Shown: positions 8,975 to 64,000 of the stretch, one piece after another
Position numbering within the stretch: position 1 is the first letter of the stretch
Layout of the letters: every line of letters begins with the position of its first letter
NCBI GenBank assembly: GCA_947498315.1
Contig: CANMLD010000003.1
Location: forward strand, 429 to 64,428
Length of the DNA stretch: 64,000 nucleotides
From: Pseudomonadota bacterium
Lineage (GTDB): Bacteria > Myxococcota_A > UBA9042 > GCA-2863065
Reading direction: 5' to 3'
Position numbers and translations under genes: made by a program
Notes under the pieces: model-generated
What the model was told of the DNA's origin: nothing
Databases searched by the model: none
Seen by the model: only the letters and a program-made list of their open reading frames with translations

Positions 8975-11900
8975 TTAGTTCGCTCCTTCCGCTTTCTTGA
9001 CGGGGCGTAGCATGTCCACCGCGGTGTTGCCGCGCTTGAGGAAGCGCACGATGTTGCCCGAGAGCAGAGTGTCTTGCGTGTGCTCCGCGGTCAGCTGCTT
9101 GTTCAGCGGGCTGTCGCCGGCGACGGGGAAGCTGTCCGGGTCCTTCTTGTGGGTGTAGATGCCGGCATCCTTCGCGCACTGGTTATAGACCCCCTTCTCG
9201 TGAGCGACCATGAGCGCGCCCTTGAGGAGGATGAGCGCCTTCTCGTTGATCGGGTCCGCGAAAGTCTGGAGCGCCGCACGGTACTGGGTCTCGCCGTCGG
9301 TTCCGAGGAGCACGTCGGGGATGGGCACCGAGTCGAGCTCCTCCACGAACTTGTAGTAGAGGAGTCCGTTGCGGAAGGCCGCGCAGCCGAGCCAGTAGGC
9401 CGAGCCCATGTTGAACACGCCGTCGAAGGACGCCTCCGCTCGCTGGTGGAGCTCGGCTTTCTTCTTCAGCGCCTCCATGAGCGCGTTGATGTTCATCGTC
9501 GCCGGGATACGCGCGTCGTCGAAATCCTGGAAGGTGTAGTCGGCGGCCCAGTAGGCAGCCTGCGCGGCGTACTCCTGAGCGAAGCCACGGTTCTCGGGGT
9601 TTGGGTCGTTCTTGCCGTTATTGGCGTACTCGTTCACCGCTTTGGTGAAGTAGTCCGTGGCCTTCTTGCGGCTGGTGTAGACCTTCTTGGTCGGCGCACC
9701 GACGGCGTTCTTGGCGTTCTTCGCGACCTGCTCCTTCTCATCGAGAGCGCGGAGGATGTCACCGGCGCGCGACCAGCCCTGGACCTTGAGGCCGGCTTCA
9801 CCCGAGTACTTCGCGGCGAACGCGTCGTAGTGGGTGACCGCCTTTTTGAGCGACTTCTCGTCGGCCATCTTCTCGAGCAGGTTGCCGATCTTGAAGAAGG
9901 CGTTCGGGGCACGTTCGTGCTTCGGGTAGACCTTGAGGAACTTCTCGAGCGCCGCGATGGCCCCGGCGTGATCGTTGGTCGCTTCGCGAATGAGCGAGGC
10001 GTTGATCATGGCGTCCGGCGTGTCCTTGGCGTCCTTGAACTTCTCCATCTGGAGGAAGGCGTCAGCCGACTCTGCGAAGCGCGTCTGCGACTCGTAAAGC
10101 ACGCCGATCTGGAACTGCGCTTCCGGCGCGACCGACTGGCCCTTGAAGTTCTTCACAATAGACTCGTAGGTCGCGACGGCTTCCTTGGTGCGCTTGGCAC
10201 GCTCGTACAGGAATGCGAGGTTGTAGGTGGCCTTGGCGACCATCTCGCGATCCTTCGACTTGCCGAACTCGGCGACGAGCTGCTTCAGACGGCCGATGGC
10301 GTCTTCCACGCGTTTGGCCTTCATGAGCGCGACCGCGTCCTCGTTGATGGCGATGGCGATGTAGGTGCTGGCCTGCTCGTCCGTGATGAACGGGTTCTTA
10401 GTCGCCTTGAGCTTGCGGGCCCACTCTTCGACCTTGTCCCAACGAGCGAGCTTCGAGTAGGCCTCCATGATGGTGACGGCCGCGACCGTCGCCAGCTTGT
10501 GCCTCGAGTCGTACTCGAAGATCTTCTGGAGACGTTGAACGGCCTCGGCGAACTGGCCATGCTTGTAGTAGGTGTCGGCGGCCAGATACATGACCTCCGG
10601 GATCTGCTCGCCGCGCTTCGGATACTTCTTGATGAAGGCCGCGTCCTTGCGGAGCTCGAGGAGCAGGTTGACGTAGCTGTCGGCGGCGTCGACGTAGGCG
10701 CGCTCGAGTGGGTGCAAGTCCGACTTTTGGATGGTCTCGCTCATCGAGGCCTTCCATTCGTCTTCGCTCAGCTTCTTCTTCTCGATCGAGCCGGTGCCCC
10801 CCTTGCCGCCATCAACGCACTCGCGGACGCCCTGCTTACACATCTCTTCGTACGACGCGTAGATGATTCCTAGCGCGGCGTCTTCGACGAACTGACCCTT
10901 CTTGTCGCGCTTGATGACCTCTTGGTACGACTTGATGGCGCCCGCGTAGTCCTTCAGCATCCCGTATTGGATTTCGCCGAGGTTGAAGTTGATGACGTAG
11001 GCCTTCTCGCTGTCCGGGAAACGCGACAGGAACTGCGCATAGTCGCCCGCAGCCTTCTCGTAGAGGTCTTTTGCCAGGCCTGCGTTCTTTTTGTCGTCCG
11101 CTTTCTGGCCCGACTCGTGCCAACCGACGGACATCGACGCCATCTCGTTCTCGGTGAGCGTGTTGGCTTCAGCGACGGCCTCGGTGTTGGCATTGTTGGT
11201 CGACATCCACGACCCATCCGGCTGGAAGTAGGCCCACGCGCGACGCACCTCCTTCTCGGTCTCTGCGGCGTCGTTGACCTTGCGACGCACTTCGAGGAGG
11301 CGCGCGAACCATTGCGCCGCCTTCGCGTTCGACGGGCGGGTCTCGAGGAAGTGATTGAAGAGCTCGGTCGCTTCCTTGTCCTTGTCGAAGCCGATGTAGA
11401 GGTCAGCGAGCTTCTCCATCTTCTCCCAGACGGGATCGCCCTTGGTAAGGACGCGCTCGAAGTATTCGAGCGCTTCGCGCCAGGAGTCATCCATCTCGGC
11501 CCACGTCTTCACGAGGTCATCGAGAGCCTGATCGCGGAAGCTGATTTGGCCGGAGGCGGTCCCGATGTTCTCGACGACCTTCTGGAAGGTATCGATCGTC
11601 TTCCGGAACTCGCGGAGGTTGAAGTACACCCAGCCCAGCTTGTAGAGGGCGTAGTTGAGCATGGGTGAGGTCGGGAAGTTCGTGATGATCTTCTCGTAGT
11701 TCGTCTTCGCGTAATAGAGCGAGTCCGTCTCGAAGAAGTGTTCACCGAGCGCCAGGAAGGCCTTGGGTAGCTGCGGCGACTGCGGGTAGGTCTGAACCAG
11801 CTTCTGCAGGTACTGCACCGCCTCCTTGAGAAGGTTGCGGTCCTGCATCTCCTTGCCCTGCTCGAGGGCACCGCGACCGAGGTAATAGAGGATCTCGTCG

Positions 11901-51309: not shown

Positions 51310-53463
51310 ATGATCACGGAAGGTACGGAGAGCATGCAGGCTCGACTCGCGGCCGAGGGGGGACCATTGCCGCTGCTCGCCCTCCTCGAAGAGCTGCGGG
51401 AGGCCGAGTTCACAGGGGCGGTCAAAGTGACTCTGTCTGGCGAAGAGGTGCGGGTCTTCATTCGTGCGGGGAGTCCGCTCTTCTGTGCCGGCTCGGGTCC
51501 GCATCACTCGCTCGGAGCCTTCCTTCTGCGGTCCGGCGCGCTCCATGCGCAGGACTTGAAAGCCATCGCCGAGAGAGCGCAGACGGCTAAGACCCGCCTC
51601 GAAGAGCTGCTCGTCGCGGAGGGACGCTTCACGCCCGAGAAGTTGCGCGCGGCTCAATCCGCAATGAGCCACTTCACCTTCGCCGACGTCGCCGTGCGTG
51701 GCGATCTCGATGTGCAGCCGATGCCACTCGATGTCCCCAAAGTAATCGAGGACTTCACGCTCGATCCGATACTGGCCATCGTGGAGTTCACGGCTCGGTA
51801 CGACCGTGCCGCCCTAGAGAGACCGCTCTCGGGCCACGTCGTCCCAGGCCCTCGGCTAGCCGAGCTCGAGCCCGTCTTTCATCGGGTCTACGGTGCGGTC
51901 TTCGGGACAGCGCTCGCGGCGATGAAGCATGGGCCCGTGCCGCTCAGCCAAAGCCTCTCGCCCGATCTGAAACGATTAGTGGTGGCGCTCCTTCGCTGCA
52001 ATGCGGCGAAGCTCCTGCCATCAGACGCTGCAATAGCCACTCCGAGCCCGTCCCGAGAGACGCTTCACGCCATCCCCGTGCAAGGAATCCCCGCCGGGAT
52101 GTTGCCTACCCTCGGGGTCCCTGCAGCGGAAGTGGCGCGAATCGCCGACGTACTCGCACGGGAGGGTTTCGTCGCGACGGTTCTCCGCCGTAACGTAGGC
52201 TTCGGCTCGCGCTCAGCGACCGAAGGGCCCGCTCTCGCGTCGCGGACCGGTCCGCGGACGACGGGCGCTCCTGCGGGCTCGGGGGGTGCCGGTGCTAAGC
52301 CGGCCCCTCTACCGGACCTGGAGGCACTCATCGCGCCCACGCCAAGCAGCGAGCATGACGGAGCGCTGCATGCGGCTTTGGCGCAGGCGCTCGTGGAGGC
52401 TGCCGACGATGAGGAGGACGACGCCACCGTAGTTGGCCCTCTGTTGGTGGCAGCCCCGACGACGAGGTCGGGCGTAGGTCCAGCGAACACGAGCCCGGTG
52501 CGTGCAAGCCCACCACCATCGACCTCAAGGGCACGTTCACCGGAGATCGTGGGTGGAGCGAGTGCGGCGGCAACGCGACCCGCGTCGCTGCCCTTGGCGT
52601 CCACACGATCCAGTGAAGCCCGCACGCGCGATGGGCTCTCGCCCTTGTCCGAGCGCGCGGTGGAGCTCGGCGACAGGCGGCGGCGGCTCGAGTCAGCCAA
52701 CGCCTTCGACGCGCTCGAGGTCGCGCCCCGGGTCGCCATGAGCGTGCTCAAGGAGGCTTACGTTCGGCTACGAGCGCGCTACGACGAAGGTGCGTTTTCG
52801 GATGAACTTCGTGGCCATGGTCCTGGAGTCGCTCGAGACCTGAAGCGCGTCACGTCGGCCCTCGACTCGGCCTATGCCCAGCTGACCACGCGTGAACGTC
52901 GCGGTGAGCTCGAAGCGACGTTTGATGGCTTGTCTGTGCTCGAAGTATCGAACTACTTCGGCGCCGACGTCTTCTATCGGGATGGGCGTCGTCAGCACGT
53001 CGCACGTGAGTTTCGGCTGGCGTTTCAGAGCTTCGTTCGGGCCCACCAACGATGGCCACACGAAGCCGACTACTGGGCGTGGGCGGCACAAGCACTCTGG
53101 GACTCCCACCAATCGGAAGGCACCTGGGGAGACGGGGCTCGGGCCGGCGTCGAGCGTCACGCCCGTGAAGCGCTCACGGCGGCTTCCGGCGGTGACACGG
53201 CTGGCTATCACGAGCTCGCGTTGGTGCTCCTCGCGCGCCTCGCGCTCGAACGGGGGCAGGCGGTCGAAGCGCGCGCGTACTACGAAGCCATCCTCGCGAA
53301 GAGCCCCTCGCATGAGGAAGCACGGTCGGGAATTCGAGAGCTCTCCGCCTTTGCAAGTACGCCAGCGGATGGGCCCGGGTCTACGGGCCGTGTGCTCGGC
53401 GGCCTCGCTTCGAGGCTCATCGCGGGGTTCAAGTCCGGAAACAAGCAGGGGGAGAGACGTTGA
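51310..53463 (+). CDS. Multidomain protein: N-terminal DUF4388 (PATAN-like), Ala/Pro-rich linker, J-domain-like segment, C-terminal TPR-like region
   Basis: LPLLALLEELREAEFTGAVKVTLSGEEVRVFIRAGSPLFCAGSG matches the DUF4388 pattern. FDALEVAPRVAMSVLKEAYVRLRARYDE is J-domain-like. Start could be ATG 51334. Confidence 0.55.
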   Translation: MITEGTESMQARLAAEGGPLPLLALLEELREAEFTGAVKVTLSGEEVRVFIRAGSPLFCAGSGPHHSLGAFLLRSGALHAQDLKAIAERAQTAKTRLEELLVAEGRFTPEKLRAAQSAMSHFTFADVAVRGDLDVQPMPLDVPKVIEDFTLDPILAIVEFTARYDRAALERPLSGHVVPGPRLAELEPVFHRVYGAVFGTALAAMKHGPVPLSQSLSPDLKRLVVALLRCNAAKLLPSDAAIATPSPSRETLHAIPVQGIPAGMLPTLGVPAAEVARIADVLAREGFVATVLRRNVGFGSRSATEGPALASRTGPRTTGAPAGSGGAGAKPAPLPDLEALIAPTPSSEHDGALHAALAQALVEAADDEEDDATVVGPLLVAAPTTRSGVGPANTSPVRASPPPSTSRARSPEIVGGASAAATRPASLPLASTRSSEARTRDGLSPLSERAVELGDRRRRLESANAFDALEVAPRVAMSVLKEAYVRLRARYDEGAFSDELRGHGPGVARDLKRVTSALDSAYAQLTTRERRGELEATFDGLSVLEVSNYFGADVFYRDGRRQHVAREFRLAFQSFVRAHQRWPHEADYWAWAAQALWDSHQSEGTWGDGARAGVERHAREALTAASGGDTAGYHELALVLLARLALERGQAVEARAYYEAILAKSPSHEEARSGIRELSAFASTPADGPGSTGRVLGGLASRLIAGFKSGNKQGERR

Positions 53464-55394
53464 TCAAGCTGCGGCTATTGCTCGGCGATCGCGCCGATGA
53501 GATGACTTTTCCAGACGCTGCCGTGATTGCGGTTGGACGTGCGCCAGGGAACGCCCTCCGGATCCCCGATGGACGGGTCTCGAGTCTTCACGGCGAGATA
53601 GTGCGTCGCGGCGGAGGCTATGTGTTCCGCGACCTGCGTTCGACGAACGGCTCATTGCGGCTACGCGGTGAAGAGCGAACGGTTGTCGATGGGCTCAACT
53701 GCCCAGAGGTCTCGCTGGCCACGGGTGACGTGCTCTGGCTCGGCGACGTAAGCGATCCGGTGAAGGTCGAGGTCTGCTTCGCCGACGCGGCGTCTCGCGG
53801 GACGCAGGGGACTGAAAATACGGTGATTGCGCGCCGAGGCGTTCGTGAGGACGCCGTCGTGACGATGCTCTTCGGCGCTCCCAACGCCGAGGCCGACCGC
53901 ATCCTGAGGCTGCTCCGCGACGTCGGCGCCGAGTCCGACGTGACCGGCGTCCTCGAATGTGTGTCCGACTATCTCTTCGAGACGATGGCGCATGCCACTG
54001 CCGTCGTTGCCGCGGTGACCGACCGGCCCGACGAGCCGACCATCGTGGTGGAGCGCGGTGGGCGCGGCGCGCGTGAGGTGGGGGCCGCGGACGCGCCGCC
54101 TTACCCGCGCCGCCTCGTCGAGTTGGCGATCGCAGAAGCGACCGCCGTGTCCGCTGACCTGGGGGCGGGGACCGAAGCGAGCCTCGTTCGCGTGAAGGCC
54201 GCTGCGGCCATTGCGTCGCCGCTGACATGGGCCGGCGAAGGGCTCGGGGCGCTCGTGGTGCTGCTCTCCAGCACGCCACAACAGGGCGACCTCGACCGCG
54301 TCGCCGGGCTCGCGGTACAACTCGCCAGCGCCTTTCAGATGGGGCGGGTGCTGCGACGATTGCGAGCGGTCGAGCGCCGGCTTCGGGACGAGAACAAGGC
54401 GCTCAAGACCGACGTGAGGCCCGACTCGACCTTCGGCGAGATCATCGGTGCTTCAGCCAGTATGCGAGCGGTCTTCGACAGCATGCGCCTCGTCATGGAC
54501 ACCGACGCGACCGTGCTCATCACTGGGGAGACGGGGACCGGCAAGGAGCTGGTCGCCCGGGCGCTACACGACAAGAGCCGCCGAAAAGCCGCACCCTTTG
54601 CCGCCGTGAACTGCGCGGCGCTGTCAGAGAACCTTCTCGAGAGCGAGCTCTTCGGACACATGAAGGGTGCCTTCACGGGTGCGGTCGAGAACAAGAAGGG
54701 CCTCTTTCAGGTCGCGGATCGCGGCACTCTCTTCCTCGACGAGCTTGGGGAGATGTCGCTCACCCTGCAGGCCAAGCTCTTGCGGGCGCTTCAGGAAGGC
54801 GAGATCCTGCCGGTCGGGAGCACGCGGCCGATTCGAGTCGATGTGCGCGTGCTCGCGGCCACACACCGCGACTTGCGCGCGATGGTCAAAGCCAGCCAGT
54901 TCCGCGAAGACCTCTTCTATCGCGTCAATGTGTTCCCGATTTCCCTGCCGCCGCTCCGGGAACGTAAAGGAGACATCGGGCCGCTGGCGAGCTTCCTCAT
55001 CGGCAAGTACGAGAAGAAGTTCGGCAAGCGCCTCGGCGGGATCTCGGTGGGTGCCATCGCGCGTCTCGAGGCGTACGGCTTCCCGGGCAATATCCGCGAG
55101 CTCGAAAACGAGATGCAGCGTGCCGTGCTCCTGACTCCGCCGGAGCACGCCGTCGATGCGAGCGTGCTCTCAGAGCCCATCCGAAACGCCGCGCCGCGCG
55201 TCGATGTGACCGAGAGCCTCGACGTCCCTGACGGCAGCCGGCTCAAGGACACGATGGACAACCTCGAGCGCGAGGTGCTGAGGCGCGCCCTCGAAGAGCG
55301 GGGTTGGAACCGGTCGCAGACGGCACGCGATCTCGGGATCAGCCGGCAGGCACTCATGGTCAAGCTGTCGAAGTATGGGCTAGAGCCGGAGTAA
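53460..55394 (+). CDS. Sigma-54-dependent transcriptional activator with an N-terminal FHA domain and a C-terminal Fis-type HTH
   Basis: FHA-like N-terminus (AVIAVGRAPGNALRIPDGRVSSLHGEI). AAA+ sigma54-interaction module GETGTGKELVARALH with GAFTGA and ESELFGH motifs. C-terminal HTH (SQTARDLGISRQAL). TTG start overlapping the upstream stop. Confidence 0.8.
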   Translation: MIKLRLLLGDRADEMTFPDAAVIAVGRAPGNALRIPDGRVSSLHGEIVRRGGGYVFRDLRSTNGSLRLRGEERTVVDGLNCPEVSLATGDVLWLGDVSDPVKVEVCFADAASRGTQGTENTVIARRGVREDAVVTMLFGAPNAEADRILRLLRDVGAESDVTGVLECVSDYLFETMAHATAVVAAVTDRPDEPTIVVERGGRGAREVGAADAPPYPRRLVELAIAEATAVSADLGAGTEASLVRVKAAAAIASPLTWAGEGLGALVVLLSSTPQQGDLDRVAGLAVQLASAFQMGRVLRRLRAVERRLRDENKALKTDVRPDSTFGEIIGASASMRAVFDSMRLVMDTDATVLITGETGTGKELVARALHDKSRRKAAPFAAVNCAALSENLLESELFGHMKGAFTGAVENKKGLFQVADRGTLFLDELGEMSLTLQAKLLRALQEGEILPVGSTRPIRVDVRVLAATHRDLRAMVKASQFREDLFYRVNVFPISLPPLRERKGDIGPLASFLIGKYEKKFGKRLGGISVGAIARLEAYGFPGNIRELENEMQRAVLLTPPEHAVDASVLSEPIRNAAPRVDVTESLDVPDGSRLKDTMDNLEREVLRRALEERGWNRSQTARDLGISRQALMVKLSKYGLEPE

Positions 55395-55894
55395 GCCAGC
55401 AGTTCCAAAGCGCCGCTGGACGGGCGAGTTGCGGATGAGGAGGCGAACGTGCCGCTCATGGGCGCACCGGGGCCAGGGGCGCACTGTGGCCAGCGGGGGT
55501 GCCGGAGCGTTGACGTGCCGGGACGATGACCACATCACTGGCGCCCAGCGATCTCAAGGTCTCCTCGAGCATCGCCACCACCGCGTCCCGCTCCTCCGCC
55601 GTCACGGCCGTGCCGTCATGCCAACGGCGTATCGACTCTGCAAAGACGACCGCGGGTGACGGCAGCAGCTCGGCCAAGAGCGCAACGGCGGCGACCTGGC
55701 AGAAAGCGACTTCGCCCCGACCGAGCAACTTCAAGCGGCCGACTCGCCGACCGCCGTCGACGTCGATGATGCGCTAGGGTGGCTCGACGGACGCGTCCAC
55801 CTCGGGGCGGGGAGCGCCGTCACCTCGGCCAAGAGAAACTCCCTAGTCGCTGGGCTCGGGACCGTGCGGCTGCGCCGAGGACGGGCCGGAACGG

Positions 55895-57613
55895 TCACGG
55901 GGCTCGCGTGGCCATCGCCTGTGCCAGCGCACCCGCGACCGCTTCGCGCTCGACATGGACGAGCATCAAGATGACGTCGCCAGGGCGCGCGACGGCGAGC
56001 GCACGCTTCACCGCGTCGACTTCGTCTGCAGCCAGGACGACGGCGGCCGGCGGCAGCCCGTGCCGCTCGAGCGCCTCCCGGAGTTTGGCTGGGGTCTCTC
56101 CCGGCGCCCGACCCCGGAGGTATCCAGTAAGCTCTCGAATGTAGACGTGATCTGGCGCGGCGGCGGCGATGATCGCCGAGGTCTCGCTGAGCGCGTCATC
56201 GCTGCGATCGCCGGGGTGCGCCGTGGACACGAAGAGGCGGTTACCCTCGGTCAGCGCCTTGGCGAGGGAGAGCACGGCGCGGATCCCGTGAGCGTTATGG
56301 GCAAAGTCGAGCAGGACCTTCACACCGCGCACGTCCACGACGTTGCCGCGGCCGGGGTTGTCGTCACCGGTGGGCAAAAAGCCCAGGAGGGCGCGGGCTA
56401 TCGCGGGGTCGTCGACGCCGAGGGCGTGGGCCGTCGCTGACGCCGCGAGGGCGTTCTCGATGTTGAAGCGCGCGCGGCCGCCGAACGTGAGCGGGATGGC
56501 GGTGACGGGCGCGATGGCGTGGTCGCCTAGGTCGTCACGGCGGACGATCTCACCGCGAGTGGTCGTCCAGACCGTCTCGCCCTTGGCGCGTGCACGAGTG
56601 AGGAAAGGGTGGCTCTCCTCAGGTGAGAACCAGACGACTCGTCGTCCGGCGCCGTCGCGCGCCAGCGCTCTGCCGAGGACCTGCAGGTTCTCGTCCTCCG
56701 CGTTCAAGACGACGACGCCGCCCGGGCGCACCGAGGTCGCGACCACGGCTTTGACGCGGGCCATCGAAGCGACGTCGTCGATGCCATAGCTGCCGAGGTG
56801 GTCGTCGCTGACGTTGGTGATGAGCGCGACATCCGCGCCGTCCACGGCGAGGCCTCGCCGCAGGATGCCGCCGCGCGCCGTCTCGAGGAGCGCGACGCCG
56901 ATCTCCGGACGCAACAGCGCTTTTCGTGCCGCGAAGGGGCCAGTGCAGTCGCCGGCTTCAATGATGGCGTCGCCGACCGCCACGCCGTCAGTCGACGTCA
57001 CCGCCGCGATGAGACCGCACTCGCGTGCCATGCGCGCCAGAAGCCGGGTGGAGGTGGTCTTCCCGTTTGTCCCCGTGATGATGGCGATGGGGATGTGGCC
57101 GAGGGCGTCCCAATCGACCTCCGCGACGAGAGGGAGCGACGCTCGAGGCCACGAGACGGCGCGGGGGCCGGTGCCGATAGCGACGGTGTCGTCGTCCCAG
57201 AGGAAGTGCAGCTCCCGCCCTTGTGCCTCTTTCTCGAGCGCAAGGAGGCGCTCCGAGCGGAGCCCGTCTACGAGCGGCGTGATCAGAGCCAGCTTGCCGA
57301 CGTCGTCGGGCTGCTCGCCACCGTGATGCGACGCGAGGACGCGCTGAACCGCCCACTCGGCGAGCTCCGCATCGGCGAGGAGTGTGTCGATGGGACCCGA
57401 CCGGAGGAGTGCGATCCGGCCCTTGGAGCGGCGCACGATCGCGTCGCCGGCACCGGGTACACCGAATCGAGCACGAAGGGCGTCCCACTCCGCGAGGATT
57501 GGGGAGAGCGTTGGCGACAGCTCCGAGTCGTCGACGAGCAGCTCGACGATGACCCCTGGGCTCTTTGAATACAGGTTTGGGCCCGTGAGCCTGCGGACGT
57601 CGTCTAGCTTCAT
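55895..57613 (-). CDS. CphA-like protein with cyanophycin-synthetase-type N-domain plus Mur-ligase (M) domain but no ATP-grasp domain (572 aa)
   Basis: N-terminus MKLDDVRRLTGPNLYS parallels the CphA N-domain (compare MKITERRTYRGPSLYA in the adjacent cphA). Mur ligase P-loop IITGTNGKTTSTRLLA, LETARGG and DHLG motifs. 28-nt gap after the cphA stop. Confidence 0.7.
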   Translation of the reverse strand: MKLDDVRRLTGPNLYSKSPGVIVELLVDDSELSPTLSPILAEWDALRARFGVPGAGDAIVRRSKGRIALLRSGPIDTLLADAELAEWAVQRVLASHHGGEQPDDVGKLALITPLVDGLRSERLLALEKEAQGRELHFLWDDDTVAIGTGPRAVSWPRASLPLVAEVDWDALGHIPIAIITGTNGKTTSTRLLARMARECGLIAAVTSTDGVAVGDAIIEAGDCTGPFAARKALLRPEIGVALLETARGGILRRGLAVDGADVALITNVSDDHLGSYGIDDVASMARVKAVVATSVRPGGVVVLNAEDENLQVLGRALARDGAGRRVVWFSPEESHPFLTRARAKGETVWTTTRGEIVRRDDLGDHAIAPVTAIPLTFGGRARFNIENALAASATAHALGVDDPAIARALLGFLPTGDDNPGRGNVVDVRGVKVLLDFAHNAHGIRAVLSLAKALTEGNRLFVSTAHPGDRSDDALSETSAIIAAAAPDHVYIRELTGYLRGRAPGETPAKLREALERHGLPPAAVVLAADEVDAVKRALAVARPGDVILMLVHVEREAVAGALAQAMATRAP

Positions 57614-57641
57614 CGCGGGCCTCAGGAGCTCATGGGATGGG

Positions 57642-60437
57642 TCAGTCGTCGGAGTCGCGCGCGAGACGCACGCCGCGCCCGTCTTGAATCAAGGTCGCGC
57701 CCTCGAGCAGAGATCCGAGCGGCGACGGCGGCGCCTTGGGGAGGACCTCGGCAGCCGCCGCGTCGGTCGCGTTCCCCGCGGGCTCGGTGCCCTTGAAGTA
57801 GATGATCTGCTTCCAACAACGCGCAGGGGCGTCGCCGAAGATCATCAACAGGTCGCCGCGGCGAGCGAACTCGAGGGCGGCGTTGATGGCGGTGACTTCG
57901 TCGTTGATGACGTGGAGGTTCTCGGCCGGAAAGCCGGTCGCGAGCGCCGCTTCCGCCATCATCTTCGGGACTTCCTCCGGGCCGCGGCCACGGGGATCGT
58001 CGTCGCGACGGAGGAAGAGGACGTCGAAGTTCTGGGCGCCGATACGCGCGATCTCGCGGATGTCTTCGTCCCGGCGGTCGCCCGGCGCGGCGAGGACGGC
58101 GATGCGCCGGCCCTCGACTTTGAGGCGGCGGGCGAGCAACGCCATGGCCGAGATAGCCGCGGGGTTGTGGCCGTAGTCGAGGATGACCTTGAAGGGGTGA
58201 TCGTCGAAGACGTTCATGCGGCCCGGGGCCTGGTAGAACGTCGTCCCGAAGGTGCGGAGGCCGTGTCGGATGTCGTCGACCTCGAGCCCCATCGAATAGG
58301 CCATCAAGGCAGCGAACATCGCGTTCTGCACGTTGTGCATGGCCCGGCCCTCGAGGGTCGCCGGGATGAGGTGAGTCCACAGCAGCGGTATGTGAACGTT
58401 GCCGCCGTCGTAGAGCGTCACCATCTGGCCGTTGATGCCGTCTTCGAGCACCGCCGCCAGCCCGCCGCTGCGAATATGCTGCCGGACGAGCTCGTGGCCC
58501 GAGTTCATGGTGACGTACCCGATGCGCTTCGCGCCCGAGTGGTCGGCCATGCGAAGGCAGTGCAGGTCGTCGGCGTTCAAGATGGCGCAATCACGCGCCA
58601 CCTCGACCACGATCCGCTTCAGCTCGGCGAGCTGCTCGAGGGTGTCGATTCCGCCGAGGCCGAGGTGGTCGGCGGCGATGTTCAGGACGGCGCCGACGTT
58701 ACAGGTCCGGTAGCCCATGCCGGCCCGGAGGAGGCCGCCCCGGGCCGTCTCGAGGACCGCGACGTCTACCGAGGGATCGCGCAAGACCATCTTCGCCGAC
58801 TGCGGCCCCGTCATGTCGCCCGCGACCGTTCTCTCGCCGTCGATGTAGACACCATCGGTGGTGCAAAGGCCGACCGTGTGTCCTTTCATCTTTAGGATGT
58901 GCGCGAGCATGCGGGACGTCGTCGTCTTGCCGTTCGTGCCCGTGATCGACGCGATGGGGATCTTCGACGGCGCGCCGGGCGGGAAGAGCATGTCCATGAC
59001 CGGACCCGCGACGTCCCGCGGCTTCCCTTCGGTTGGGGCGACGTGCATACGGAAGCCGGGCGCCGCGTTCACTTCGCAGATGCCGCCGCCAATCTCTCGA
59101 TAAGACTGGCTGATATCGGTCGTGATGAAGTCAACGCCGATGACGTCGAGGCCGATGGCCTTCGCGGCGCGGATCGCCATGGCTCGGTTGTCGGGGTGGA
59201 CGACGTCGGTCAGGTCGATGGCAGTACCGCCGGTGCTGAGGTTGGCCGTCGACCGCAGGAAGAAGCGCCTGCCGTCCTCGAGCACGGTGTCTTTGCTGAC
59301 GCCCCCCTTGTCCATGAGGAGCTGGGCCTGGTGATCGAGCTCGATGCGGGTCAGGACCTTCTCGTGGCCGATGCCGCGGCGCGGATCGCTGTTCACGATG
59401 GCGACGAGCTGTTCGATGGTGCTCACGCCGTCGCCGATGACGTGTCCTGGCACGCGCTTGGCGACCGCGATGAGCTTGCCGTCGACCACGAGCATGCGGT
59501 GGTCCATGCCCTGAATGAAGTTCTCGACGACGACCGAGCGAGCGTGTTCGCGAGCCTTGCCGAAGGCGACGCGGATGTCGTCGGCGGTCATGATCCCGAG
59601 CGTCACGCCGCGCCCGTGGTTGGCGTCGAGGGGCTTGACGACGACGGGGTATCCGAGCCGCTCGGCCGCGCGCACGGCGTCTTCGGCCGACCGCACGAGC
59701 CGCTGCTTCGGGACGGGCAAGCCGAGATCGCCGAGGATCTGGTTCGTCTCTTCCTTGTCGGAGGCGATCGAGACGGCGATGTGACGCGTCTCGGAGGTGA
59801 CCGTGGCCTGGATGCGCTTTTGGTATTTGCCGTGGCCAAACTGAACGAGGCTGTAGTCGTTCAGTCGTAGCCAGGGGATGTCGCGATCTTCGGCGGCACG
59901 CACCAGCGAGCCGGTCGAGGGGCCGAGCTGCCGAGCCTGGGCGAACTCGACGAGGGCCTTCAGCTCCTTGGCAAAGTCGAAGACGGCGTCACTAGCCTCC
60001 TTGGACGGCGTCTTCAGGTCCGCCGGGAGCAGGTCCTCGATGAGCTGAATGCCGAGCTCGGCGGCCGACGCGCCGACACGCTCCTCTTCGAACTCGAAGA
60101 CGACGTGGTAGCAGCCCGGCGTGCCAGTCGAGCGGGTCTTGCCAAAGGTGACCTTGGCGCCCGCAATGTTCTGCAGCTCGATGGTGATGTGTTCGAGGAC
60201 GTGGCCGAGCCAGGTGCCGCCGTCGTCGGTGAGGCGCGTGATGAAGCCCCCGACGTCGCCGACGGAGCACGTGTGTTCACGCAACGATGGGAGGCGCGCG
60301 AGGAGCCCGTCCACGAAGCCCGGGATCTTGGCGCTAGGCCAAGCCTCGAGGTGCTGCAGGTCGACGGTCAGCCGCATGACCGGGAAGAGGGCGTAGAGGC
60401 TAGGGCCCCGGTATGTGCGTCGCTCGGTGATCTTCAT
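57642..60437 (-). CDS. cphA: Cyanophycin synthetase (N-domain, ATP-grasp G-domain, Mur-ligase M-domain)
   Basis: ATG at 60437 (MKITERRTYRGPSLYALFPV). ATP-grasp region VVKPLDANHGRGV. Mur-ligase region ITGTNGKTTTSRM, LETARGG, DHLG. ~931 aa. Confidence 0.85.
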   Translation of the reverse strand: MKITERRTYRGPSLYALFPVMRLTVDLQHLEAWPSAKIPGFVDGLLARLPSLREHTCSVGDVGGFITRLTDDGGTWLGHVLEHITIELQNIAGAKVTFGKTRSTGTPGCYHVVFEFEEERVGASAAELGIQLIEDLLPADLKTPSKEASDAVFDFAKELKALVEFAQARQLGPSTGSLVRAAEDRDIPWLRLNDYSLVQFGHGKYQKRIQATVTSETRHIAVSIASDKEETNQILGDLGLPVPKQRLVRSAEDAVRAAERLGYPVVVKPLDANHGRGVTLGIMTADDIRVAFGKAREHARSVVVENFIQGMDHRMLVVDGKLIAVAKRVPGHVIGDGVSTIEQLVAIVNSDPRRGIGHEKVLTRIELDHQAQLLMDKGGVSKDTVLEDGRRFFLRSTANLSTGGTAIDLTDVVHPDNRAMAIRAAKAIGLDVIGVDFITTDISQSYREIGGGICEVNAAPGFRMHVAPTEGKPRDVAGPVMDMLFPPGAPSKIPIASITGTNGKTTTSRMLAHILKMKGHTVGLCTTDGVYIDGERTVAGDMTGPQSAKMVLRDPSVDVAVLETARGGLLRAGMGYRTCNVGAVLNIAADHLGLGGIDTLEQLAELKRIVVEVARDCAILNADDLHCLRMADHSGAKRIGYVTMNSGHELVRQHIRSGGLAAVLEDGINGQMVTLYDGGNVHIPLLWTHLIPATLEGRAMHNVQNAMFAALMAYSMGLEVDDIRHGLRTFGTTFYQAPGRMNVFDDHPFKVILDYGHNPAAISAMALLARRLKVEGRRIAVLAAPGDRRDEDIREIARIGAQNFDVLFLRRDDDPRGRGPEEVPKMMAEAALATGFPAENLHVINDEVTAINAALEFARRGDLLMIFGDAPARCWKQIIYFKGTEPAGNATDAAAAEVLPKAPPSPLGSLLEGATLIQDGRGVRLARDSDD

Positions 60438-60623
60438 GAACGGTCCCCTTCTGCGTTCCTCTGCTTCGGCCCCCGGTGGGACCGGCGTCTTCACGCTTTC
60501 GACCCCCGCGGGGACCGAACCGATGGGGCCGGGCTAACCCCGGACACCCGCTCGACGGCGAGCGCCGAGCGTAACATCGTTTTGAATGCGGTGGTATGGG
60601 GCGACCGATCCCCAAAATCTGAA

Positions 60624-60690
60624 GGATTGGTCCGGGTCGCTGCCCGCCACTATCGCGCAGCACCGGAGTCCGAGCGACCCGGTCCAATCC
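60624..60690. promoter_or_regulatory. 18-bp inverted repeat (17/18 paired) with 31-nt loop, ~190 nt upstream of the cphA start
   Basis: ggattggtccgggtcgct ... agcgacccggtccaatcc, seen directly. Confidence 0.4.
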
Positions 60691-61107
60691 TCGATTGAAC
60701 GAAGCGCACCACAATTTGCGAGCGAGCGCGCCTTCGTCGGGAGACTACCGGGCCGAAACCCCGCGCCGACTTAGCTCAAGACCCGGGAATCATGCGAGTT
60801 TCGAACCTAAGGACTGCTATGGGGTTCAAGGAAAGCACCCCCGCATTTCGGCAATTTGGCGTCCATGGCCTCCGCCCTGGAGTCGCGATAGCTCAGGGCC
60901 TTCGAGTGGGGAAGCGATGGTCGGTCGGAAGCCTGCCGCGGAGCGGCTTCGTCCAATCGTCGGCGTTCTCGCCGCCTCCTCTTGGGTGGCGTGTGACCCG
61001 ATACCTGCGGCGGTGAAGTTCGCGGCGACGGGTGGCAAGTTCGTGCTGGTTTCCGGTTGTCGGCGCGCCCGGATCAGTCAATGACAGAGGGGTTAGCAGA
61101 GGGGGTT

Positions 61108-61261
61108 CGGACAGGAACCTCGGCCAAAAGAAGGCCGGAGACAACAGATGGAGAAGGACCAACCAGTCAGGTCGCCGAGGATCGCGGAGGGACGGGCCCT
61201 ACTACGGTTGGTCCATCTCCACGCGGCGATAGTCCGGAAGGTTGGCCGAGGTTCCTGTCGG
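61108..61261. other. ~150-nt long imperfect hairpin: perfect 18-bp outer stem (gacaggaacctcggccaa/ttggccgaggttcctgtc) nested around a 15-bp inner stem (1 mismatch); ncRNA or MITE-like element candidate
   Basis: Outer arms 61110-61127 and 61242-61259. Inner arms 61150-61164 and 61206-61220. Lies in the 1.1-kb noncoding gap between cphB and cphA. Confidence 0.45.
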
Positions 61262-61613
61262 AGTGGGAGGTCCCAGATGTTCAGGGCTGGGATCGGGACG
61301 GCCATGTAGTTGTCACTAGGCAGGTCGGTCATGACAAACTCGACTGGCAGCCGGGCGACGGCCCCGCGCATCTATCAGGAAGGCGCGGCCGAGCCGGCCT
61401 TCACTCTGGGAGGCCCGGCGGTAGCCGCGCCTCACAGATAAGAGCGTGTCGGCGTGCTCGGGCCCGTAAAGTGCTATCCTCGCCCTCCTCGCCGGGCGCT
61501 TCGCTTTGCCCGCCTCCGGGGGGCTCCGGCTGACACTTGAGTCACCTGAGCGGAGGCGATTTATCGCCGACGATCAGGGCCGTCCCAACTCCCCGACCGA
61601 GCCCTTCGGCCGA

Positions 61614-62459
61614 TTAGTCGTCGTAGTCTTCGCGAGGCGGCGGTGGCGTTGCGACGCGCGTGTGCAGATTGAAGGTCGCGCCGGCCGTGAGGATGTGGAG
61701 TGAGATCCCGGTCACGCAGATGGGATCGCCGGGGTGGGCCTCGGCGACCGAGCTGTGCGTGATGCCGCTCGGGTCGACGATGGTGATCCCGCCGGTACCG
61801 GCGACGTGGATGGTGTCATCGGGGTCGATGAAGGCGGCTGTGTCTTCGTCGAGGCCGATGCCTACTGCGAAAGGGTTGTAAGCGAGCGCGCTCAGAAGGC
61901 GTCCGAGGCGGTCTCGCTGCCGGAAGTGTTGGTCGATGACGACGCGGTTCGTCAGGCCGAGGCCGGGTGTGACCGTCGCGGTGCCGGCCCTCGGTGTCGC
62001 TCCGCCTTCGCCATAGGCGATCATGTGCTCCGACAAGATCGCGGCGCCAGCGGAGGTGCCTCCGACGATGACGCCTTTGGCGTTGCGTCGTCGGAGGGCC
62101 TTGGCGACTGGCGTCCCGCCGAGGATCGTCGAGATCCGGAGCTGATTGCCGCCGGTCAAGAAGATGCCGGTGGCGTCATCGAGCAAGCCCATCCAGTCCG
62201 CACGATCGGCGTCGCGACGTTCGGCGTACGGGAGCGACGATGCGGCCCGAGCGCCGAGCTCGCGGAAGAGCTGCTCGTAGCGCTCTCCGGTGTCGGGCAG
62301 GACCGAGGCGGTAGGGATGATGGCGATACGAGCCGAGTCGCCACCGGCGAGCTCGACGAAACGGCGGAGAATGTCGGCGCTGCCGGCCTTCTCTTCGCGA
62401 CCGCCCACGGGGACGATCCAGCCGCGGCGTTCTGTGAAGTCGACTTTCGCGGGGCTCAC
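61614..62459 (-). CDS. cphB: Cyanophycinase (S51 peptidase family)
   Basis: GGNQ...GTSAGAAI serine-nucleophile motif and overall CphB-like sequence. GTG start at 62459. Confidence 0.8.
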   Translation of the reverse strand: MSPAKVDFTERRGWIVPVGGREEKAGSADILRRFVELAGGDSARIAIIPTASVLPDTGERYEQLFRELGARAASSLPYAERRDADRADWMGLLDDATGIFLTGGNQLRISTILGGTPVAKALRRRNAKGVIVGGTSAGAAILSEHMIAYGEGGATPRAGTATVTPGLGLTNRVVIDQHFRQRDRLGRLLSALAYNPFAVGIGLDEDTAAFIDPDDTIHVAGTGGITIVDPSGITHSSVAEAHPGDPICVTGISLHILTAGATFNLHTRVATPPPPREDYDD

Positions 62460-62511
62460 GGGCTCTCACTCTCGTTCAGTTACGTGGCGCGGATCAGGGG
62501 CGCCGATCAGG

Positions 62512-63681
62512 TCAGGAGGGGCGTGGCTCGAAGGGCCCGAGCACGACCGGGCGGCCCTCTGCGAGCATGTGCCGACCGCGGGCCCAGACCTCCCGCACCT
62601 CGCCGGCGGCGCCTAGTACCACGAGATCGGCGTCGTTGCCCACCGCGATGCGCCCTTTGCGATGGAAACGAAACAGTTTCGAGACGTTGGAGGTGAAGAA
62701 CGGCAGCGCTTGGCTCAGGGTGTGGCCCCGCTGGAGGAGAGCGCGGAGGGTGTCCGTGAGGAGCGCCGGACGGCCGATGTCCATCGCACACACCTGTCCC
62801 TGCTCGTCAAACACGGGCAAGCAGCCGGCGCCGTCGCTCGAGCAGGTGAGGCGATCGGCGGGCAGCCCGTTGCGTAGCCAGTCATCGATAGCGTCTACGG
62901 CGCTGAGGCCGGGATCGTCGTCTTCTACCGGGAACGCGGTCACATCGACCGTGCAGCCACGCTCGGAGAGCGCCATGGCCTCGTCCCAGAGGCGGCGCTG
63001 CCGGTTGCAGTGGGTCGGGTGAAAGGTGCGTGCCGGCAGCTCGAGCGTGTCGAGCGCCCGTCTCACGAGGTCGAGGCCCCGTGGGCCGTCGCCGAGGTGG
63101 AGGTGCAGCAGGCCAGCTTTGCCGCTCATCATACCCGCGACGTGGGCGTCCGCGGCGATACGGGCGAGCTCGTCCAAGGTGGGTTGGCTCGAGCGATGGT
63201 CTGAGATAGCCAGCTCACCCACGCCGACGATGGGATCGACGAAGACGATGTCGCTGCGCACCGAGCCCGTGAGGGTCAGTAGCGGCACCTCGTAGCTGCC
63301 GGTGTAGCACCACGCCGAGAGGCCTTCGGCGCGCAGGCCGAGGGTACGCGCGACGAGGGACGCCACCGTTCGCGTCGTGCCGTCGGTGCCGAGCGTGCCG
63401 ACGACGCTCGTAATGCCGGCTTCGGTGAGGCGGCTGAGCATAATGGGCGGGACTCGAGAGGACGGGCCCGACTCGCCGCCACCGCCGGTCACATGGACGT
63501 GGCAGTCGATGAGACCCGGGATGAGGCGGGCGCCATCGAGCTCCATAATCGTGGCACGGTAGCCCTGGGGCGGGTCCGGCAGGGACGGCGCCAGAGCGAC
63601 CACCCGGCCGCCTGCGATCAGAACGTCATTGATTCCGAGATCTTCCGGAGCATGAACGTGGGCGCGACGGAGTAGCAGCAT
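62512..63681 (-). CDS. iadA: Isoaspartyl dipeptidase (amidohydrolase superfamily)
   Basis: LIDCHVHVTGGGGE metal-binding motif characteristic of IadA. Sits directly upstream of cphB. Confidence 0.75.
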   Translation of the reverse strand: MLLLRRAHVHAPEDLGINDVLIAGGRVVALAPSLPDPPQGYRATIMELDGARLIPGLIDCHVHVTGGGGESGPSSRVPPIMLSRLTEAGITSVVGTLGTDGTTRTVASLVARTLGLRAEGLSAWCYTGSYEVPLLTLTGSVRSDIVFVDPIVGVGELAISDHRSSQPTLDELARIAADAHVAGMMSGKAGLLHLHLGDGPRGLDLVRRALDTLELPARTFHPTHCNRQRRLWDEAMALSERGCTVDVTAFPVEDDDPGLSAVDAIDDWLRNGLPADRLTCSSDGAGCLPVFDEQGQVCAMDIGRPALLTDTLRALLQRGHTLSQALPFFTSNVSKLFRFHRKGRIAVGNDADLVVLGAAGEVREVWARGRHMLAEGRPVVLGPFEPRPS

Positions 63682-63684
63682 AGG

Positions 63685-64000
63685 TCAGGAGCCCTTCATG
63701 TAGGTCGAGAGCCTCAGGATCAAGGCGGCCAGGAGGACGAGTACGCCGAGGGTGAGCACGCTCGCGATGGCCATACGTCGGCGATCTCGCTGGCTGAGGA
63801 GGGGCCAGATTCGAGCGCGAGTACGCCAAAGCTCGAGGAGCTGAGCGGCGGTGAGGAGCTGTAAAGGCCAGAGATAGGTGCCGACGAGGGACGCGCGCCA
63901 AATCGCAGCGGCGATGGCAGCGGCGTTCTCGCCGCTTGGGGCATCGAGCTCTGGGGGGGCATCGAGCTCCGGAGGCTGGCGTCCGCGTCGGTCTTCGATG
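63685..64000 (-). CDS. 3' end of a membrane protein gene continuing beyond the window
   Basis: Open minus-strand frame from the window edge to TGA at 63687-63685. C-terminal hydrophobic stretch MAIASVLTLGVLVLLAALILRL. Only 3 nt from the iadA start. Confidence 0.3.
   Translation of the reverse strand, partial: IEDRRGRQPPELDAPPELDAPSGENAAAIAAAIWRASLVGTYLWPLQLLTAAQLLELWRTRARIWPLLSQRDRRRMAIASVLTLGVLVLLAALILRLSTYMKGS

Follow-up and report, generated by a model that had tools for sequence, protein, structure and literature searches.

The window analysed in this study, a 64,000-nucleotide (nt) stretch of contig CANMLD010000003.1 (assembly GCA_947498315.1), carries near its right end a complete cyanophycin synthetase gene (cphA1), followed directly by a gene for a 572-amino-acid (aa) CphA paralog. 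This protein, designated here N'M, is composed of a reduced N domain (N'), a stub of the G domain and a complete Mur-ligase-type M domain, with no ATP-grasp (G) core. It represents a large and ancient family co-inherited with one clade of CphA1 proteins, and not a local remnant, and it is a third, apparently undescribed, CphA architecture. N'M most likely arose from a cyanophycin synthetase that lost its G core. We propose, with moderate confidence, that it is an ATP-dependent side-chain ligase, which would act on cyanophycin-type acceptors together with CphA1.

Domain architecture of N'M

The two genes and the parts of N'M are as follows:

55895..57613, minus strand: N'M gene, encoding the 572-aa G-less CphA paralog (open reading frame, ORF, with an ATG start)
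57254..57613, minus strand: N' region, aa 1-120, a CphA N domain in reduced form that lacks the Cx19HxxEH metallopeptidase motif (hhalign, Foldseek)
57146..57253, minus strand: stub of the G-domain start, aa ~121-156, with the family motif A..RglP.LWDDe.VS.G.G (hhalign to CphA1 170-209)
56369..57100, minus strand: M-core (Mur-ligase middle domain), aa 172-415 (Pfam Mur_ligase_M at aa 179-395; hhalign, P=100%)
57053..57073, minus strand: P-loop GTNGKTT, aa 181-187, invariant in the family and equivalent to the TeCphA1 P-loop 495-501
56798..56803, minus strand: catalytic D271-H272 (DHLG), invariant in the family and equivalent to SuCphA1 D585/H586
55949..56368, minus strand: M-lid (Mur-ligase C-terminal domain), aa 416-555, containing R422, H439, G468-D-R470 and R500-G-R502 (Pfam Mur_ligase_C at aa 421-550)
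57642..60437, minus strand: partner gene cphA1, a complete cyanophycin synthetase 1 comprising N (with CxnHxxEH), G and M, with intact motifs (TIGR02068, 1132 bits)

A preliminary description of this DNA had identified the gene at 57642..60437 as a full cphA with N, G and M domains. This was borne out by the TIGR02068 score (1132 bits, cutoff 850) as well as by Pfam matches to Cyanophycin_syn, several ATP-grasp families, Mur_ligase_M and Mur_ligase_C. The start of the gene is the ATG at 60437 according to its homologs, while the longest ORF opens at a GTG at 60494. Its stop codon (TGA, 57642-57644) is separated by 28 nt from the ATG of the N'M gene at 57613.

The only Pfam matches of N'M are to Mur_ligase_M (PF08245, aa 179-395, 65 bits) and Mur_ligase_C (PF02875, aa 421-550, 57 bits), both above cutoff; with these two domains and a P-loop of the GxxGKT type the protein has the features that define the Mur ligase superfamily. 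Its M domain (aa 172-552) is 36% identical to that of the neighbouring CphA1 (BLASTP, E=2e-55), and the same residues were aligned with CphA1 491-868 at a probability of 100% (hhalign). N'M is not a CphA1, since the full-length models remain below their cutoffs (TIGR02068, 362 bits versus 850, covering model positions 477-850 only; NF010623, 320 bits versus 877) and the G domain is absent. As stated in the preliminary description, no ATP-grasp domain was detected in N'M by Pfam, NCBIfam, hhalign profile alignment or an AlphaFold2 model. CphA1 residues ~210-490, i.e. the ATP-grasp core, have no counterpart, and the ATP-grasp domain that its author feared might have been overlooked in the 572-aa sequence turned out to amount to a stub of ~35 aa, retained from the beginning of the G domain.

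The same source considered the protein to consist of N and M only, with an N domain clearly paralogous to that of CphA. An N-like region and an M domain are indeed present; the N domain is reduced, however, and the G stub has to be added. The homology of N' is likewise supported as a remote one, but far from clear at the level of individual sequences: a BLASTP comparison with the neighbour aligned just 33 aa (E=0.063) and PF18921 (the N domain) did not match N'M. For profile comparisons we used a family alignment of 89-120 full-length homologs (44-86% identical, ~550-625 aa), which has 51 invariant columns in its 89-sequence version, and a profile of 74 CphA1 sequences from related loci. Family positions 1-155 were aligned with CphA1 1-209 (hhalign, probability 94%, E=1e-7). 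An alignment of this kind had been suggested as the means of defining the domain boundaries, which it places at approximately CphA1 1-209 for N' plus the stub and 491-868 for M. In the N' part, ~30 CphA1 residues are gapped, including the HxxEH helix, i.e. the active-site helix of the endo-cyanophycinase that resides in the N domain of CphA1 (PMC9262961). The stub consensus, sPrLlaL.aEA.rRglPfLWDDe.VSvG.G, pairs with ~40 residues at the start of the G domain of CphA1, GPST..iv.aA..RgIP..rL...sLVQLG.G (hhalign), and residues A130, P136, G147 and G149 are conserved in both families.

Structure prediction led to the same assignment. The AlphaFold2 model of the whole protein, built from the alignment, had a pLDDT of 95.3 and a pTM of 0.94, and its top PDB matches in Foldseek were CphA1 structures, superposed over the full length with the G domain skipped (TM 0.80-0.84, query-normalised). 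Because the M domain accounts for only 70% of the residues of N'M, TM values this high require that N' superposes too; we thus infer that in the model N' packs on M in the same orientation as does the N domain of CphA1. When aa 1-171 were modelled alone (pLDDT 90.5), Foldseek returned 13 PDB hits at probability 1.00, all of them CphA1 or CphA2 (E 8e-7 to 7e-4, TM 0.45-0.60). Beyond CphA1 and CphA2, no solved structure close to N'M was found by PDB sequence searches or Foldseek.

Catalytic residues, selection and the proposed reaction

Residue equivalences were established by alignment to PDB sequences, together with the residues described for TeCphA1 (PMC9427784) and SuCphA1 (PMC9262961):

P-loop Lys and Thr: TeCphA1 K499, T500; N'M K185, T186
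Mg ligands: TeCphA1 T522, E558; N'M T208, E244
Adenine stack: TeCphA1 N497, F692; N'M N183, F383
Catalytic pair (site of the mutations in M-dead constructs): SuCphA1 D585, H586; N'M D271, H272
Lid residues on the ATP phosphates: TeCphA1 R731, H748; N'M R422, H439

The preliminary description had noted that the P-loop and the DHLG region are intact; the comparison extends this to all the listed catalytic, ATP-binding and Mg-binding residues described for the M domain of CphA1, which are kept in the N'M of the window. All of them except T208 and F383 are invariant or nearly so throughout the family (at position 383 the family consensus is Tyr, also aromatic). They include the equivalents of D585 and H586, whose mutation in SuCphA1 abolishes M activity (PMC9262961). 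Sixty-five positions are conserved at ≥85% with the identical residue across the N'M and CphA1 families, among them K185, T186, E244, D271, H272, R422, H439, N387 and R500-G-R502. The degeneration of M catalytic residues against which its author had cautioned was thus not observed.

N'M is under purifying selection. The ratio of nonsynonymous to synonymous substitution rates (dN/dS), calculated against the ortholog from the Myxococcales metagenome-assembled genome (MAG) of locus L001 (86% identical), was 0.13 overall, 0.14 for N' and 0.12 for M; the value for CphA1 in the same comparison was 0.06. With the ATP-grasp domain absent and the catalytic residues of M non-degenerate, N'M looks catalytically active, in line with the earlier suggestion that it is active rather than decayed.

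In CphA1, the G domain adds Asp at the C terminus of the chain, after which the M domain phosphorylates the β-carboxylate of the new Asp and attaches Arg (PMC9262961; PMC9427784). At the M site, the end of the polymer is held between the N domain and the M-core (PMC9427784). By analogy, the N-M unit of N'M would hold the C-terminal end of a cyanophycin chain at the M active site, use ATP to activate the β-carboxylate of the C-terminal Asp of this chain or oligomer, and then ligate arginine or a related amino acid to it, working in trans beside the complete CphA1 produced from the same transcript. Since the N-M unit and all of the M chemistry are preserved, an M reaction in trans on chains with an unmodified terminal Asp is the most economical reading. 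On this view the substrates of N'M and its work in trans are presumed, and the cell might benefit through (i) extra M capacity, (ii) rescue of stalled chains whose terminal Asp is unmodified, or (iii) a wider range of amino acids. The role proposed in the preliminary description, that of a dedicated enzyme adding or editing side chains, agrees with all observations made here.

Several observations weigh against this proposal. The M domain and the peptidase motif of the partner CphA1 are intact (21/21 proteins of the partner clade described below), so no activity needs to be supplied. N'M is an accessory rather than an obligatory companion of the CphA1s that carry a C-terminal tail (see below). 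About 30 residues of the N domain have been lost from N', and polymer binding may consequently differ. Finally, class-specific changes could shift the specificity for the acceptor or the amino acid: CphA1 S547, H513 and R789 correspond to A228, R194 and S471, R253 is invariant in N'M, DNPGRG replaces q.PGR.N, and the Asp that is conserved before RGR in CphA1 is not conserved in N'M.

The latter changes are also the basis of an alternative in which N'M is a specificity variant, placing Lys, Orn, Cit or another residue on the Asp side chains and giving rise to a mixed or modified polymer; this corresponds to the 'editing' role named in the preliminary description. Altered motifs (GDWTGPAAAR versus GD.tGP.SA, DNPGRG versus q.PGR.N, GDRsd versus GDRRD, and ReL..YLRGR versus r.D..lRGR) are consistent with this, and a paralog that has persisted for long next to an intact M domain points to an activity that is not redundant. 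However, only three positions are conserved but different between N'M and CphA1 (R194/H, A228/S and W139/R), as against the 65 common ones, and the class-specific residues are too few, and the Arg pocket of CphA1 is too little defined in the sources used, for specificity to be called. We consider such a variant rather unlikely.

Distribution of N'M and its association with a CphA1 clade

A profile of N' alone, run against 1.84 billion representative proteins, matched 666 clusters (50% identity) at E≤1e-3, or 440 at the stricter threshold of E≤1e-10. All complete matches were ~550-615 aa long, with N' starting at residue 1. Among species-representative genomes, full-length relatives were detected in (i) Myxococcota (Nannocystis, Plesiocystis pacifica SIR-1), (ii) Gammaproteobacteria (Lysobacterales, Luteimonas lutimaris, Steroidobacteraceae), (iii) Betaproteobacteria (Rubrivivax), and (iv) Planctomycetaceae, Thermoanaerobaculia and an Actinomycetota MAG. 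The pairing of N'M with cphA1 was observed in at least seven bacterial phyla.

Related loci (numbered L001 onwards) were sampled with sequence patterns as seeds, at most 80 loci being taken per scan, and profile alignments served to infer where genes start in high-GC loci. A cphA1 gene, or a gene derived from cphA1, adjoins N'M in all 17 related genome or MAG loci of sufficient length (Myxococcota, Gamma- and Betaproteobacteria, Planctomycetota, Acidobacteriota and Actinomycetota), usually in the order iadA/cphB-cphA1-N'M; the neighbour is degenerate in L021 and apparently frameshifted in L083. A second set, of 80 metagenomic loci, was fetched with the CphA1 of the window (60-74% identical). 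Among the 68 of these with at least 700 nt of downstream sequence, N'M follows on the same strand in 65, at a median gap of ~14 nt and with several overlaps. Four tail-bearing relatives of this CphA1 (L086, L099, L128 and L075, with 2-8 kb of downstream sequence) have no N'M downstream, which indicates that N'M is accessory and not obligatory, or is sited elsewhere in those genomes.

Actinomycetota and Chloroflexota (Kribbella, Terrabacter, Nocardioides, Thermomicrobiales and others) have a second, divergent group of N'M proteins, again encoded near cphA1. The members of this group have the same M domain, preceded by an N-like domain without the G stub (147 columns aligned with the CphA1 N domain, P=96%). 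In a neighbour-joining (distance) tree of M domains, rooted at the midpoint with no outgroup, the N'M proteins of both groups fell into a single clade, distinct from every CphA1 M domain; the CphA1s with an N'M neighbour also formed one clade, whose two subclades mirror the two N'M groups. This topology suggested that the N'M-CphA1 pair is old and co-inherited, and did not arise by independent truncations.

These data bear on the simplest alternative, namely that N'M is a decaying cphA duplicate or a cell-wall Mur ligase located here by chance. Members of the family are labelled in the sources as 'hypothetical protein', 'Mur ligase family protein', 'cyanophycin synthetase' or 'UDP-N-acetylmuramyl tripeptide synthase', and all but the third of these labels would fit such a view. 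It is contradicted by the purifying selection, by the hundreds of clusters that share one architecture, by the strict synteny with cphA1, and by the comparison with MurE (TIGR01085, 76 bits versus a cutoff of 257), the best matches always being M domains of CphA. We regard this explanation as effectively refuted.

One locus deserves separate mention. In L021, from a Thermoanaerobaculia MAG, an intact N'M gene is convergent with a gene for a degenerate CphA of 603 aa (9717..11528, minus strand). In this protein the N domain, including HxxEH, is intact, the G core is partly deleted, the P-loop reads GSFGKT, ETADSG replaces ETARGG, and both DHxG and the M lid are missing; it could represent either a synthetase in decay or the remnant of a CphA2-like protein. 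Such a combination of an intact N'M with a degenerate, M-dead, CphA2-like partner could speak for N'M as a dipeptide or primer synthetase, producing free β-Asp-Arg or short oligomers from Asp and Arg, and CphA2 demonstrates that polymerisation of preformed dipeptides is viable (PMC10273328). Nevertheless, L021 is a single MAG in which the G domain of the neighbour is damaged as well, the partner elsewhere is a complete CphA1 of the primer-independent type, and the retained polymer-holding N-M unit fits a polymeric acceptor better. Synthesis of free dipeptides thus seems quite improbable.

The CphA1s of the partner clade were inspected for distinctive features. The P-loop, DHxG and the primer-generating peptidase motif CxnHxxEH are kept in all 21 of them. 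Compensation by N'M for a defective M or N domain of the partner was consequently rejected: with these motifs intact, N'M does not replace a lost function. In the G domain of this clade the otherwise near-invariant K232 and G245 are replaced by N and Q, respectively. A hairpin of the M-core (residues 664-693 of the window CphA1, ~58359..58448, minus strand) contains four inserted residues (G670 in 100%) together with the motif L-x-W-T-H-L. The matching region of SuCphA1 contains W672, a residue of the tetramer interface (PMC9262961).

This hairpin would suit N'M as a subunit that hetero-oligomerises with CphA1 and alters its stoichiometry, architecture or regulation, irrespective of any importance of N'M catalysis. 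The tight coupling of the genes (gaps often <30 nt, or overlaps) and the congruence of the trees are compatible with this idea as well. On the other hand, the full retention of catalytic residues and the dN/dS of 0.12 for M argue for selected catalysis, and the one apparent fusion of the two proteins proved to be an artefact: the 1530-aa stop-to-stop ORF of L006, taken as a CphA1-N'M fusion candidate, was rejected because cphA1 and the N'M gene do not share a reading frame there, and the long ORF only runs across cphA1 in another frame. A purely or partly structural role of this kind appears unlikely.

The second distinctive feature of the partners is a C-terminal extension:

57645..57689, minus strand: C-terminal tail motif of CphA1 (...IQDGRGVRLARDSDD-COOH), ending in Asp and conserved in the partner subclade

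In the subclade formed by the Proteobacteria, Myxococcota and Planctomycetota partners, CphA1 is extended by ~40-60 low-complexity residues (~50 aa at 57645..57800, minus strand, in the window) that end in ...[IV].DERGV[RH][LI]A.E..D-COOH. The extension is also found in L001, L004-L010, L020, L075 and L086-L165. Of the 11 complete CphA1s from genome loci of this subclade, 10 carry the motif, as do all 76 complete metagenomic relatives; the exception is L020, whose tail reads ERGLVFEREESD, and the CphA1 of L044, cut by the contig end, was not counted as complete. The terminal Asp occurs in all 87 complete proteins (11 genome loci plus 76 metagenomic) versus 0 of 62 other CphA1s. The tail could be a docking element, a mimic of the substrate or product, or a built-in primer.

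On this basis, N'M might recognise the C-terminal tail of CphA1 and arginylate its terminal Asp, creating a protein-linked primer or regulating CphA1. The near-universal motif (86/87) and terminal Asp (87/87) of the subclade, set against their absence (Asp in 0/62) elsewhere, would accord with this, as would the fact that M-type sites bind chains whose terminal Asp is unmodified and that N'M follows 65 of 68 such CphA1s. In contrast, the partner CphA1s of Actinomycetota and Chloroflexota lack the tail yet have an N'M neighbour, some tail-bearing CphA1s have no N'M nearby, and these CphA1s still possess the HxxEH site that generates primers. We therefore hold tail recognition to be of low probability. 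Its most specific form, in which N'M would dock on the flexible tail and, by arginylating the terminal Asp, convert the CphA1 C terminus into a covalent primer for protein-primed synthesis like that of glycogenin, is an analogy that we find less probable still.

Relation to known enzymes and gene surroundings

N'M and CphA1 (TIGR02068; PDB 7LG5, 7LGJ, 7LGQ, 7WAE) have in common a homologous M domain (34-36% identity) with the P-loop, the Mg ligands, the DH dyad and the lid Arg/His, an N-type domain that the model places on M in the same orientation, and the association with a cphB/iadA cluster. CphA1 differs in possessing the ATP-grasp core and the Cx19HxxEH helix and in its size (~870-930 aa versus 572 aa), and the M domains of N'M form a separate monophyletic clade. 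CphA2 (PDB 8FXH, 8FXI) resembles N'M as a CphA1-derived paralog with one ligase activity and a non-catalytic N domain, and provides a precedent for a CphA derivative specialised to one reaction, with an active G domain and an inactive M domain (PMC10273328). In architecture, however, the two are mirror images: CphA2 has an active G domain and a truncated, inactive M domain and polymerises β-Asp-Arg, whereas N'M has a complete M domain and no G domain. Moreover, CphA2 has been described as cyanobacterial, while the N'M family was observed in seven other phyla.

MurE and other Mur ligases (PF08245 + PF02875) share with N'M the middle and C-terminal folds and the motifs of ATP-dependent acyl-phosphate ligases. 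N'M lacks their UDP-binding N-terminal domain, is encoded in a context of cyanophycin metabolism rather than cell-wall synthesis, and scores far below the cutoffs of the MurC, MurD, MurE and MurF models. Pfam and NCBIfam contain no model specific for the N'M family or the N' region.

Another way of dividing CphA functions over two genes is represented by the tandem cphA pairs of Betaproteobacteria, including Nitrosomonas europaea (L013, L022, L025, L030, L033, L037, L041, L047, L048 and L070). In these pairs, the M domain encoded by the first gene is short and divergent (~26-30% identity across its first ~150-250 residues); the second gene is complete but has a divergent N domain. These pairs, called CphA1/CphA2 (PMC5178258), resemble the N'M-cphA1 pair in being adjacent CphA paralogs with unequal domains, but both of their genes contain G, and their M domains fall within the CphA1 part of the tree.

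A search of the full-text literature yielded no description of a G-less CphA paralog, although subscription-only literature was outside its coverage and an earlier mention is possible; likewise, none of the terms sought for a truncated or second CphA paralog occurs in a 2023 bioinformatics survey of cyanophycin genes. At present, cyanophycin synthesis is attributed to two enzyme types: CphA1 (N-G-M), which carries out all of it, and CphA2 (N-G-inactive M), which polymerises dipeptides anew. A third architecture limited to M activity would show many non-cyanobacterial cyanophycin clusters to be two-enzyme systems, and would point to an unrecognised step, be it side-chain ligation in trans, altered side-chain composition, priming or regulation. 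It would also offer a naturally isolated M domain for studies of the mechanism and for tailoring the side chains of cyanophycin by engineering, a goal actively pursued in biotechnology. Direct testing is possible in cultured carriers, namely Plesiocystis pacifica SIR-1 and Luteimonas lutimaris JCM 16916 and, from the second clade, Kribbella and Terrabacter.

The remaining features of the cluster in the window are:

57620..57623, minus strand: GAGG ribosome-binding site of the N'M gene, 6 nt before the ATG (read from the sequence)
61614..62459, minus strand: cphB, cyanophycinase (TIGR02069, 256 bits, cutoff 127)
62512..63681, minus strand: iadA, isoaspartyl (β-aspartyl) dipeptidase (TIGR01975, 405 bits, cutoff 331)

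The order on the minus strand is thus iadA, cphB, cphA1 and then the N'M gene. An Rfam scan of positions 55000-64000 gave zero matches. Scans for sigma-70 promoters and terminators near the cph genes remained at the level of chance, and a search for sigma-54 promoters near cphA gave 19 matches versus 18.7 expected, none of them upstream of cphA.

The genes cphB and cphA1 are separated by a 1.1-kb spacer (60495..61613). The same position is occupied by an S8 peptidase gene in L084 and by three genes in L001; in the window, the spacer contained no ORF with homologs and no trace of the L084 peptidase was found.

On the other side, two plus-strand genes (51310..55394), encoding a DUF4388/PatA_N-TPR protein and an FHA-sigma54-activator (HTH_8) protein, converge on the cph operon. 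L001 has the same pair near its operon, with extra genes intervening. Between this pair and N'M lies a small gene (55510..55898, minus strand), the GTG start of which overlaps the N'M stop codon (GTGA). Its product is homologous to a 133-aa protein encoded after N'M in L001 and L002, the closest relatives and the only loci in which this gene was seen. In the window, the small gene is split over two frames near 55805-55812, which reflects either a frameshift or a sequencing error.

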